From a phage, in NCBI GenBank assembly GCA_018167975.1, contig GCA_018167975.1_4333.1: 42,822 nt of DNA; one strand, written 5' to 3'. Under the pieces are notes generated by a model. It did no database searches and was not told where the DNA came from. It saw nothing but the letters and a program-made list of their open reading frames with translations. Below, piece by piece: positions 26,106 through 27,966 of the stretch (the stretch's first letter is position 1; every line of letters begins with the position of its first letter). Position numbers and translations under genes: made by a program.

Positions 26106-26134
26106 TTGCACACCCCAACATAATAGGATACTAT
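26106..26134 (+). promoter_or_regulatory. Sigma70-like promoter of the rightward moron cassette: -35 TTGCAC, 17-bp spacer, -10 TACTAT, palindrome AATAGGATACTATT
   Basis: TTGCAC 26106-26111, TACTAT 26129-26134; 26105-26141 is identical to the reverse complement of 4824-4860. Confidence 0.6.
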
Positions 26135-26175
26135 TCACTTACACCAACAATGTTAACTCAAACAGGAGCTACACC

Positions 26176-26367
26176 ATGACTGGCATTACTATGTTCTTCT
26201 TAATCATTATCGTTTTAGTTTATTTTATCCCGTTTTTAGTAGCCCATATGCGTGGCCATAAAGCGAAACTAGCCATATTCATGGCTAATCTGTTTCTTGG
26301 CTGGGTTCTGCTGCCATGGATATTTATTTTAATCTGGGCGTGCAACTCGAATGTCAAAGAGAAGTGA
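26176..26367 (+). CDS. Superinfection-immunity-like small membrane protein (Imm_superinfect-like)
   Basis: 63 aa, two TM helices; YFIPFLVAHMRGHKAKLAIFMANLFLGWVLLPWIFILIWA resembles the superinfection immunity family pattern; AGGAG RBS. Confidence 0.55.
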   Translation: MTGITMFFLIIIVLVYFIPFLVAHMRGHKAKLAIFMANLFLGWVLLPWIFILIWACNSNVKEK

Positions 26368-26405
26368 GCTAGTATAGGACAAATCCTAAACACGAGGAAG
26401 TAAGC

Positions 26406-27536
26406 ATGGCCCGGAAGAAAATAACCGACGAACAATTACAGGAAGAATTGAACGCCGGGATGAAGAATATAGATATAGCCCGTAAATACGGCATCTCAGA
26501 CCGCGTAATTCGTATACGTAAAGCGAAACTGGCTAAGAAAGGCGTAGGTCACGGGCGTGACGTTAGCCACCTTGTACCAGACGGATACAAGATTAAAGGC
26601 ACATCGTCGCTGGTGGACGAGTTCGGCAACACTAAGTTGCAATGGGTTAAGACTGATACCGATGCCGAACGTCAGGTCGAGTTGATGAAAGCCGTAATCG
26701 AAGGCATGAAGTCAGAGATTACCCCGGTTGCACCTGTTAAAGCCGTTCGCACCAAACGAGACGACAAGCTACTTAATCTTTACACTGTGTCTGATTTCCA
26801 TCTCGGTATGCTGGCTTGGGCCGACGAGAGCGGCGACGACTGGGACATGAAGATTGCAGAAGACCTGTTCTCCCGATGGTTCGATGCAGCATTTCAGAAA
26901 GCACCAGATGCCGGAACAGGAGTTATTAACCTGCTTGGGGACTTCGCACACTTCGATAGTCTTGATGCCGTCACCCCTGAGTCGCGCAATGTATTAGACG
27001 CTGATACTCGCTATCAGAAACTGGTCCGCTACATGATTCGTATGGTCCGACGTGTTGTTGATATGGCGCTGGTTAAACACAGGACTGTGAAACTTCTTGT
27101 CGTACAGGGGAATCATGACCCTGTAGGCTCTGTGTGGCTGGCTGAGATGTTCAGTACGCTGTACGACAATGATCCTCGTGTGCTCGTCGATACGTCGCCG
27201 GATGTTTACAAGATGGTCCAACACGGCAAAACTACGCTGTTCTTTCACCACGGGCATAAAGCCCGATTCGACGCTATTGAACCGGTTATGATTGCCAAGT
27301 TCCGTAAAGCATTCGGAGAGAGCGTTTACAGCTACGCCCACGTAGGCCACCTGCACCACCAGAAGATTGTAGAAAGCCGTAACATGGTTGTTGAGCAGCA
27401 CCGCACCCTAGCGGCTAAAGATGCCTACGCCTCCCGCGGCGGATGGATGTCAGGCCGTAGTGCAAATGTAATTACTTATAGCGCCGAATATGGTGAGGTC
27501 GCACGTTTAACTATTTCACCGGAGATGCTGGGATGA
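26406..27536 (+). CDS. HTH domain fused to calcineurin-like metallophosphoesterase (SbcD/Mre11-type motif set)
   Basis: 376 aa; N-terminal KNIDIARKYGISDRVIRIRK (HTH-like); phosphoesterase motifs SDFHLG (I), GDFAHFD (II), QGNHDP (III), FHHGH (IV), GHLHH (V); GAGGAAG RBS. Confidence 0.65.
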   Translation: MARKKITDEQLQEELNAGMKNIDIARKYGISDRVIRIRKAKLAKKGVGHGRDVSHLVPDGYKIKGTSSLVDEFGNTKLQWVKTDTDAERQVELMKAVIEGMKSEITPVAPVKAVRTKRDDKLLNLYTVSDFHLGMLAWADESGDDWDMKIAEDLFSRWFDAAFQKAPDAGTGVINLLGDFAHFDSLDAVTPESRNVLDADTRYQKLVRYMIRMVRRVVDMALVKHRTVKLLVVQGNHDPVGSVWLAEMFSTLYDNDPRVLVDTSPDVYKMVQHGKTTLFFHHGHKARFDAIEPVMIAKFRKAFGESVYSYAHVGHLHHQKIVESRNMVVEQHRTLAAKDAYASRGGWMSGRSANVITYSAEYGEVARLTISPEMLG

Positions 27537-27763
27537 CTTCAAAATACAACCGAACAATGACAAACATTCACGGCAGCACTATGACAGTAGACGTTTACGA
27601 TGTTCTCCGTGCTTTCGACATCCGGGACCCGGCACTACAGCACGCATTGAAGAAGCTATTGTGTATGGGCCTTCGCGGACATAAAGACACCGGAACCGAC
27701 TTAGCGGAAGCAATTGAAAGTCTGGAGAAGTTACGGGAGTACCGGAGTAATATTGATGAGTGA
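27533..27763 (+). CDS. Hypothetical protein
   Basis: ATGA overlap with upstream gene; 76 aa. Confidence 0.45.
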   Translation: MTSKYNRTMTNIHGSTMTVDVYDVLRAFDIRDPALQHALKKLLCMGLRGHKDTGTDLAEAIESLEKLREYRSNIDE

Positions 27764-27932
27764 AAATATTATGAAAACAATATATGTAATCCGAGTATAC
27801 GACGAAAAATGGGACGAGTGGGTTGATATTTGCGCCGTAGGTAGCAATGAAGAGGCCGTCAAAGAGATGGCAGAACGAAGTGGACGAGGTCAGTTAACTA
27901 GCTTCGACGAAATACCATTCAAAAGTGAGTGA
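27756..27932 (+). CDS. Hypothetical protein
   Basis: ORF 27714..27932; ATG at 27756 with GGAG upstream (alternative ATG at 27771); last gene before the terminator. Confidence 0.4.
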   Translation: MSENIMKTIYVIRVYDEKWDEWVDICAVGSNEEAVKEMAERSGRGQLTSFDEIPFKSE

Positions 27933-27933
27933 G

Positions 27934-27966
27934 AAAAAGGCCCCTTTCGGGGCCTTAGTTTTATGC
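27934..27966. terminator. Bidirectional Rho-independent terminator (ends the moron cassette; also follows the major tail gene on the minus strand)
   Basis: AAGGCCCC-TTTC-GGGGCCTT (27937-27956) followed by TAGTTTTATG on plus and TTTTTCTCAC on minus. Confidence 0.65.

Follow-up and report, generated by a model that had tools for sequence, protein, structure and literature searches.

A reverse-strand cassette encoding an Imm-type protein and a helix-turn-helix metallophosphoesterase in the tail gene region of a Kagunavirus: one of three slots with a shared design

The phage contig GCA_018167975.1_4333.1 (NCBI GenBank assembly GCA_018167975.1) comprises 42,822 nucleotides and was analyzed here as one stretch, referred to as the window. 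Between positions 26106 and 27956 it contains a promoter, four plus-strand genes and a terminator, which are embedded in a tail operon that reads leftward on the opposite strand. This arrangement had been noticed from the DNA letters alone, in an original prediction which described it as a self-contained accessory cassette. The window belongs to the genus Kagunavirus (subfamily Guernseyvirinae), and thus to a virulent siphophage. A megablast search with positions 25200–29200 returned 451 phage records, with Escherichia Kagunavirus genomes as the best matches (87–92% identity) and Salmonella Jerseyvirus genomes at a larger distance. The orientation of the window is the reverse of that in published records such as fBC-Eco01. 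All four predicted plus-strand genes were present in the list of open reading frames (ORFs), where they extend from 26176 to 27932 between the tail-tube and the tail-chaperone genes, and each of them is preceded by a Shine-Dalgarno-like sequence. The layout of promoter, genes and terminator on the strand opposite to the leftward tail operon was thus confirmed. The locus and its flanks comprise the following features:

26106–26134, plus strand: promoter (class A, see below) with the −35 element TTGCAC (26106–26111), a 17-bp spacer and the −10 element TACTAT (26129–26134); predicted transcription start near 26141
26122–26135, no strand: palindrome AATAGGATACTATT (AATAG-N4-CTATT) that lies across the −10 hexamer; putative operator
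26176–26367, plus strand: sii, 63 aa, a membrane protein with two transmembrane segments of the Imm_superinfect (T4 Imm) type
26406–27536, plus strand: helix-turn-helix (HTH)-metallophosphoesterase (MPE), 376 aa
27533–27763, plus strand: ORF3, 76 aa, start overlapping the MPE stop codon (ATGA), conserved small protein
27714, 27756 or 27771 to 27932, plus strand: ORF4, 53–72 aa depending on the start codon chosen (53–58 aa with the ATG at 27771 or 27756)
27937–27956, no strand: bidirectional intrinsic terminator AAGGCCCCTTTCGGGGCCTT, detected by terminator scan, which also ends the convergent tail-tube gene
25217–25998, minus strand (left flank): tail assembly chaperones (PF08748 and PF23812)
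27961–29133, minus strand (right flank): tail tube gene (PF18906)

The promoter belongs to a class, here called class A, of the form TTGCAC-17-TACTAT with the palindrome lying over the −10 element. Copies of this class precede the cassette, a leftward small-gene operon at 4805, and two mini-units on the plus strand (35.2 and 37.05 kb); a further one was located at site 3368. The 32-bp block that contains the cassette promoter (TTGCACACCCCAACATAATAGGATACTATTCA) recurred as an exact copy at 4828–4859 on the minus strand, where it heads the leftward small-gene operon (first gene 4614–4805), and with one mismatch at 35159–35190 on the plus strand, while the expected number of such copies was 0. 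The promoter was found at the same place in fBC-Eco01, VIPECOTH07 and Hrm2, and in the Jerseyvirus Ent1 it has the form TTGCAT-17-TATTAT. The element is also among the seven “phage promoters” that the authors of fBC-Eco01 obtained with PHIRE (PMC9825357).

The terminator scan, the fold energy and the U-tracts on both strands agree with the predicted bidirectional terminator. The hairpin at 27937–27956 has a stem of 8 bp, six of them GC, and a folding energy of −16.3 kcal/mol (z = −4.3). It can be regarded as bidirectional because UUUUUCU follows it on the minus strand and an A-tract precedes it. Its stem (AAGGCCCC-N4-GGGGCCTT) was found at 27937, 35446, 37322 and 17320, and with two mismatches at 11653, compared with 0.01 expected occurrences. 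The cassette hairpin was identical in fBC-Eco01, VIPECOTH07 and Ent1 and was always located 4 nt past the last cargo stop codon. Since both the promoter and the terminator recur elsewhere in the genome, they are the phage’s own signals. The cassette is therefore self-contained in having a promoter and a terminator of its own, but both are standard signals that this phage reuses.

Three reverse slots in the structural arm of the genome share one design, in which a class-A promoter is followed by the cargo and, exactly 4 nt past the cargo stop codon, by a hairpin:

37018–37341, plus strand: slot 1, promoter TTGCAG-17-TACTAT, 81-aa ORF (37072–37317) and hairpin (37322–37341), between the portal and head-morphogenesis genes
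35159–35465, plus strand: slot 2, class-A promoter with one mismatch, 72-aa ORF (35223–35441) and hairpin (35446–35465), between the Hoc-like and spanin genes
26106–27956, plus strand: slot 3, the cassette and the largest of the three, between the tube and chaperone genes

The ORFs in slots 1 and 2 had no family matches. In the window, fBC-Eco01 and Ent1, respectively, slot 1 held the 81-aa ORF, a protein of 173 aa and an amidase, and slot 2 held the 72-aa ORF, two small ORFs and nothing annotated.

The core of the cassette was strongly conserved. In all inspected relatives from both genera (fBC-Eco01, VIPECOTH07, Hrm2 and Ent1), sii and the MPE gene were present at the same site, and only the 3′ end of the locus varied. 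The tail tube protein matched ~495 records with at least 60% identity, compared with the 451 records that matched the locus. A comparative study reported that the imm gene is carried by all Jerseyvirus phages and referred to it as core (PMC8425127). The published Guernseyvirinae loci (among them fBC-Eco01 gp24–28, K1G and K1ind2; vB_SenS-Ent1 ORF20–24) have the same position, orientation, promoter motif and hairpin as the window, with 62–98% identity for sii and 53–98% for MPE, and differ only in the 3′ cargo. The original prediction had not recognized the gene combination as any known system; the same locus is, however, already annotated in hundreds of GenBank genomes. The cassette is hence already known, and its products appear under the labels “superinfection immunity protein”, “DNA repair exonuclease”, “phosphoesterase” and “DNA polymerase II small subunit”.

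The cargo behind the MPE gene consisted of ORF3 and ORF4 in the window, and fBC-Eco01 contained an additional 66-aa ORF. A HAD-PNKP phosphatase and a P-loop kinase followed the MPE gene in VIPECOTH07, whereas Ent1 carried an HNH gene, ORF3, an internal terminator and a Rha/KilAC protein. In Hrm2, an HNH endonuclease gene was located on the minus strand between the hairpin and the tail tube gene, and thus outside the cassette proper (retrieved segment L003:4284–4916). ORF3 was strongly conserved (89% identity to Ent1, 774 phage records), and its domain, with the pattern KY..VDVYDVL.AF..PA.QHALKK...G.RG.K...DL, also occurred within larger proteins. It was C-terminal in PHROG families of ~240 aa, and formed the N-terminus of a 405-aa protein of Aeromonas phage BUCT552 that has a BRCT domain at its C-terminus (segment L010:3477–4694). 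Judged from these domain architectures, ORF3 is a mobile small domain that is joined to DNA-metabolism proteins. It had no Pfam family and no structural neighbor. A kinase remnant was ruled out, as ORF3 lacked similarity to the deoxynucleoside monophosphate kinase of a relative, and a conserved partner of MPE was not supported either, because ORF3 was dissimilar to the small ORFs that follow the MPE gene in Dhillonvirus, Drexlerviridae and a metagenomic contig. ORF4 was Kagunavirus-specific. It was detected in only 23 phage records (51–98% identity), had no family matches in Pfam or PHROG, and no relatives beyond a few Kagunaviruses.

None of the four cassette proteins received a structural or tail-assembly assignment in profile searches against Pfam and PHROG. 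The superinfection-immunity-like membrane protein of the original prediction was recovered as sii, which matched PF14373 (E = 6.2e-14, 52.1 bits at a cut-off of 27.9) and phrog_1039, “immunity to superinfection” (E = 3e-23), a family that PHROG places in the category “moron, auxiliary metabolic gene and host takeover”. Its hydropathy profile had peaks at residues ~1–24 and 31–55 with the basic loop HMRGHKAK in between, consistent with two transmembrane segments, and tblastn revealed weak similarity to imm genes of T4-like phages. Like sii, T4 Imm (PF14373) is a small inner-membrane protein with two transmembrane segments from a virulent phage. However, sii has only 63 aa, fewer than T4 Imm, and is no more than a distant relative of it, and superinfection exclusion by the Guernseyvirinae homologues is suggested by this likeness.

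The second cassette gene encodes the predicted fusion of an HTH and an MPE domain. Along residues 4–375 the protein matched phrog_704 (E = 1.4e-162, profile positions 2–389 of 390), whose name “DNA repair exonuclease” is an annotation only. In Pfam the protein remained below the gathering scores (PF12850, 21.5 bits versus 27; PF00149, 17.9 versus 21.5), and the N-terminus showed weak GerE/LuxR HTH signals. An AlphaFold model with a predicted local distance difference test (pLDDT) score of 92.7 contained an HTH at residues 8–44, a beta-hairpin and helix at 61–102 and the MPE domain at 119–376. The latter adopts a beta-sandwich MPE fold of the binuclear nuclease type, so that the fold match holds despite the sub-threshold Pfam scores. 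The closest structural neighbors of the model were the nucleases DP1, Mre11 and SbcD. Searches against PDB sequences (phmmer and profile search) gave insignificant matches only, to GerE, Mre11 and Nuclease MPE, with E-values of 0.15–0.7 for Mre11/SbcD in the profile search. Compared with Mre11/SbcD and the archaeal PolD subunit DP1, MPE has 12–17% sequence identity; in place of their capping or OB domains it carries an HTH at its N-terminus.

An exhaustive search for the MPE family yielded 4,622 representatives of clusters at 50% identity (E ≤ 1e-3), nearly all of them 370–420 aa long. By tblastn, MPE was detected in 2,038 phage records, including Drexlerviridae, Dhillonvirus, Klebsiella, Vibrio and Campylobacter phages, cyanophage Pam1 and Ruegeria phage vB_RpoP-V12. 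Across 76 homologues with 31–49% identity, residues D130, H132, G178, D179, N236, H237, H282, G314 and H317 were invariant, and the protein contains the complete set of metallophosphoesterase motifs (DxH, GD, GNH(D/E), H and GHxH). The family is predicted to be enzymatically active because all metal-binding residues are invariant in these homologues. In Drexlerviridae, the MPE gene closes a DNA-metabolism operon and follows genes for a helicase, VRR-NUC and Dam, and in Dhillonvirus it lies between the lysin and terS genes. In a Vibrio phage it comes after an OB-fold protein, and in a metagenomic contig it stands behind the genes for Dam and dUTPase. Judged by this distribution, the MPE gene is a hallmark of numerous lineages of virulent siphophages, in which it belongs to DNA-metabolism operons. 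The gene is also chimeric. In comparisons of 26406–27536 with the retrieved segments L004:3501–4655 and L005:3492–4634, residues 48–94 were 98% identical to Ent1 while the catalytic domain was 36–45% identical, whereas the catalytic domain was 74–96% identical to a Dhillonvirus and the N-terminal part only 45–55%. Two deeply divergent MPE allele types exist, and both are common among Jerseyviruses. Papers on the genes by which T1 degrades host DNA, and on calcineurin-like phosphoesterase escape mutants, yielded nothing that bears on the HTH-MPE family.

The palindrome over the −10 element of the cassette promoter is part of a genome-wide set. AATAG-N4-CTATT had 13 matches with at most one mismatch in the window, nine of them exact, compared with ~1 expected; seven exact copies were found in fBC-Eco01 and four in the Jerseyvirus Ent1, with 0.03 expected in each. 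Listed sites in the window are 3368, 3526, 4830, 8598, 8643, 10930, 15040, 26122, 35175 and 37034, and most of the non-structural promoters carry the palindrome. A second promoter class, B, has the near-consensus form TTGACA-17/18-TATAGT and carries the palindrome within its spacer; its members precede the replication operons (8632, 10920 and 15030). The candidate regulator is encoded as follows:

8352–8567, minus strand: XRE/Cro-type HTH protein, 71 aa (PF01381, E = 5e-12)

A weaker class-A copy precedes this gene, which would be read from a divergent promoter pair with two palindrome copies (8598/8643) in the region 8352–8700. The arrangement of this region resembles a lambda-like switch although the phage is virulent. 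As a divergent pair of palindrome sites is the classic arrangement of a Cro-like regulator, the XRE protein is a candidate for the regulation of the palindrome promoters including that of the cassette; we infer its binding from the site layout. In an RNA-seq study of the Kagunavirus K1B4, an HTH-domain gene, vB_Eco_K1B4_008, which may or may not correspond to the 8352–8567 ORF, was the only annotated “early” gene (PMC12645636). Recognition of the palindrome by the HTH of MPE itself is unlikely, as the MPE-bearing loci of Dhillonvirus and Drexlerviridae lacked the palindrome in the 5–9 kb fragments checked.

On the basis of these results, we propose that the locus is the largest of three standardized reverse expression slots which the Guernseyvirinae keep in their structural arm, and that it works as outlined below; we assign this reading a probability of roughly 50%. 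Host RNA polymerase would initiate at the class-A promoter, close to 26141, and transcribe the cassette separately from the structural genes. The leftward small-gene operon, whose promoter is identical (4828–4859), and the other two slots would be regulated together with it. An XRE/Cro-like repressor of the phage probably binds the palindrome and modulates these promoters. The hairpin at 27937–27956 would separate the slot from the convergent tube transcript and terminate both. By analogy with T4 Imm, sii would reside in the inner membrane and block the DNA entry of superinfecting phages, and HTH-MPE, as suggested by its modeled fold, would be a Mn/Mg-dependent DNA nuclease of the DP1/Mre11/SbcD type. 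Its substrate might be host or other unprotected DNA, which it would degrade or inactivate during takeover in the manner of T5 A1 and Gp48 (see below); we hold this assignment tentatively, at somewhat less than even odds. Separate transcription of the cassette agrees with eight-point RNA-seq data from K1B4, in which sii fell into a temporal class different from that of the adjacent tail-chaperone gene (PMC12645636).

Phage systems with comparable ingredients have been described, among them two MPEs for which experiments showed an early destruction of host DNA. T5 A1, a predicted metallophosphatase, is both necessary and sufficient to degrade the host chromosome, and acts beside the DNA-binding A2 (bioRxiv 10.64898/2026.04.02.716235). 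In the pre-early module of T5, A2, the 65-aa protein T5.005 with two transmembrane segments, and A1 are encoded side by side (1706–4134 of the first-step-transfer DNA segment L014). The module combines the same three ingredients as the cassette and is expressed apart from the structural genes, as the cassette would be, but in T5 the DNA-binding function resides in a separate protein, whereas in the window it is fused to the enzyme. The MPE protein Gp48 of mycobacteriophage A10ZJ24, an early product, causes damage to the genomic DNA of the host, and the phage requires it to overcome anti-phage genes of the host (PMC12287305). As judged from its description, Gp48 has all conserved motifs like the MPE of the window; a fusion to an HTH is not described for it, and its host and phage lineage differ.

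Several observations weigh against the proposed reading. Firstly, the cassette promoter agrees with the sigma-70 consensus in no more than 7 of 12 positions and escaped a sigma-70 scan, while four promoters elsewhere in the same genome match at 11 of 12. The “strong” promoter of the original prediction is therefore present, repeated and conserved, but its strength is not supported by the consensus; we nevertheless regard the element as real because the 32-bp block is repeated far beyond chance and conserved in relatives. Secondly, sii of K1B4 was assigned to the “late” class with a peak at >100 min, compared with a latent period of 30 min, so that the timing is poorly resolved and early expression was not confirmed (PMC12645636). 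Thirdly, homology of T5 A1 to MPE was not supported: hhalign gave a probability of 19% over 20 columns, confined to the motif NHD..S.WL, A1 matched only phrog_1745, a PHROG different from that of MPE (phrog_704), T5.005 did not belong to PF14373, and homology to A2 was unsupported. The likeness to the T5 module is accordingly one of analogy only. Finally, a pairing of sii and MPE was not found outside the Guernseyvirinae, and the MPE neighbors inspected in other families were not Imm-like. As far as gene neighborhoods tell, the two proteins need not cooperate, since their pairing was found only in this subfamily.

Instead of attacking host DNA, MPE might be a replication or recombination nuclease that processes ends of phage DNA, similar to Mre11/SbcD or DP1, with phage concatemers, hairpins or stalled forks as intermediates to be acted upon. 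Such a function would fit its neighbors in other phages (helicase, VRR-NUC, Dam and a single-stranded DNA-binding OB-fold protein), the position of the gene just before lysis or terminase genes, and the HTH, which would target DNA. However, no Rad50/SbcC-type ATPase or DP2 partner was found among the ORFs scanned, which included the large ORFs of the window (primase-helicase, PolA, SNF2 helicase, DUF2800, tape measure and tail proteins). The phage also already encodes a PD-(D/E)XK exonuclease (DUF2800), and PolA has a weak 3′–5′ exonuclease match of its own. A role in proofreading is further disfavored by the T1-like phages, which carry MPE, yet had no annotated DNA polymerase in the segments retrieved. 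We regard end processing as rather unlikely, although it deserves serious consideration.

The original prediction had interpreted the cassette as an accessory moron that might serve superinfection exclusion or anti-defense. Under this explanation, the cassette would have been acquired horizontally, would neutralize host defenses or exclude competitors, and would be dispensable for the core lytic program. It shares with the lambdoid morons the order of promoter, cargo and terminator on the opposite strand within a late operon, in the form of the predicted promoter (26106–26134) and the hairpin (27937–27956). The GC content is below the genome value of 0.506 in sii (0.385), the intergenic region (0.424) and ORF4 (0.432), while ORF3 has 0.472. 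The differing 3′ cargo, the deeply divergent and chimeric MPE alleles at one locus and the PHROG category of sii point in the same direction. In contrast to lambdoid morons, however, the phage is virulent, its core cargo is fixed in the subfamily and the signals are standard for the phage rather than imported. Polymorphism in presence and absence was confined to ORF4 and other 3′ cargo, while sii and MPE were fixed at the site across the inspected members of two genera, also according to the comparative study of Jerseyviruses (PMC8425127). The GC content of MPE (0.504) equals the genome average, so that base composition gives a mixed signal for the cassette, and MPE homologues are located in replication and nucleotide-metabolism operons in >2000 phage records. 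No match to any of the four proteins was obtained with NCBIfam or with PADLOC (E ≤ 0.1), which covers defense but not anti-defense systems. Moreover, Kagunavirus isolates of the BASEL collection are still highly sensitive to restriction-modification and variably sensitive to Old (PMC11990801). The moron interpretation thus describes the variable 3′ end, but is improbable for the cassette as a whole. From the comparison of the relatives, the core is a fixed feature of the subfamily, and the 3′ end is a swap site for accessory genes.

It is quite improbable that MPE is a small-molecule or RNA-end phosphodiesterase that destroys cyclic-nucleotide immune signals or, together with a kinase-phosphatase, repairs cleaved tRNA at its 2′,3′-cyclic phosphate ends. 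A healing domain of the MPE type does occur in Pnkp, a bacterial enzyme of RNA repair, and a HAD-PNKP phosphatase and P-loop kinase directly follow MPE in some Kagunaviruses, but these neighbors are optional and absent here and in most relatives, the cassette contains no ligase, and the conserved N-terminal HTH points to DNA. Some other activity of MPE accounts for the remaining probability.

Further observations concern the transcription of the surrounding structural genes and of the leftward small-gene operon. Read on the minus strand, the bidirectional hairpins at 27937, 35446 and 37322 directly follow the tube, Hoc-like and portal genes, respectively. A conserved leftward promoter was not found for the structural genes that come next (chaperones and tape measure; spanin, scaffold and capsid; head morphogenesis). 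For the chaperone genes, the sole scan match in 25999–26175 (26156–26128) was rejected, as it was not conserved in Ent1. Leftward transcription could possibly pass the slot hairpins by read-through or antitermination. Just upstream of the tail-chaperone start, a 36-bp block at 26041–26077 (GCGCCAGACGGGAACCACCCGCTTTTCGTGTGCGAC) was near-invariant between Kagunavirus and Jerseyvirus. The block had no second copy in the window and no significant RNA fold; it could function as a late promoter, as an activator site or as part of the 5′ untranslated region. The fourth of the promoters that match the sigma-70 consensus at 11 of 12 positions (5164–5191, minus strand; TTGACA-16-TAAAAT) lacks the palindrome, reads leftward and is located upstream of the class-A promoter at 4828–4859. 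It may be an immediate-early promoter.

In a broader view, which we consider a long shot, HTH-MPE would serve small virulent siphophages in general (T1-like and Jersey-like phages, Dhillonvirus, Webervirus and others) as the nuclease for host takeover or for the destruction of the host chromosome, and would be the fused functional counterpart of T5 A2 and A1. In the Guernseyvirinae it would be paired with an Imm-type protein as a module to “claim the cell”, placed in one of three plug-in slots under a single palindromic operator regulon. Kagunaviruses are small chassis for synthetic biology and therapy, and three bounded slots that tolerate different cargo are obvious insertion sites. The single palindrome on most non-structural promoters offers a testable regulon together with a candidate regulator. 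HTH-MPE is among the most widespread uncharacterized enzymes of virulent siphophages, and lineages have exchanged its catalytic domain. Knowledge of the enzyme’s substrate would close a gap in the understanding of how T1-like and Jersey-like phages take over their host cells.

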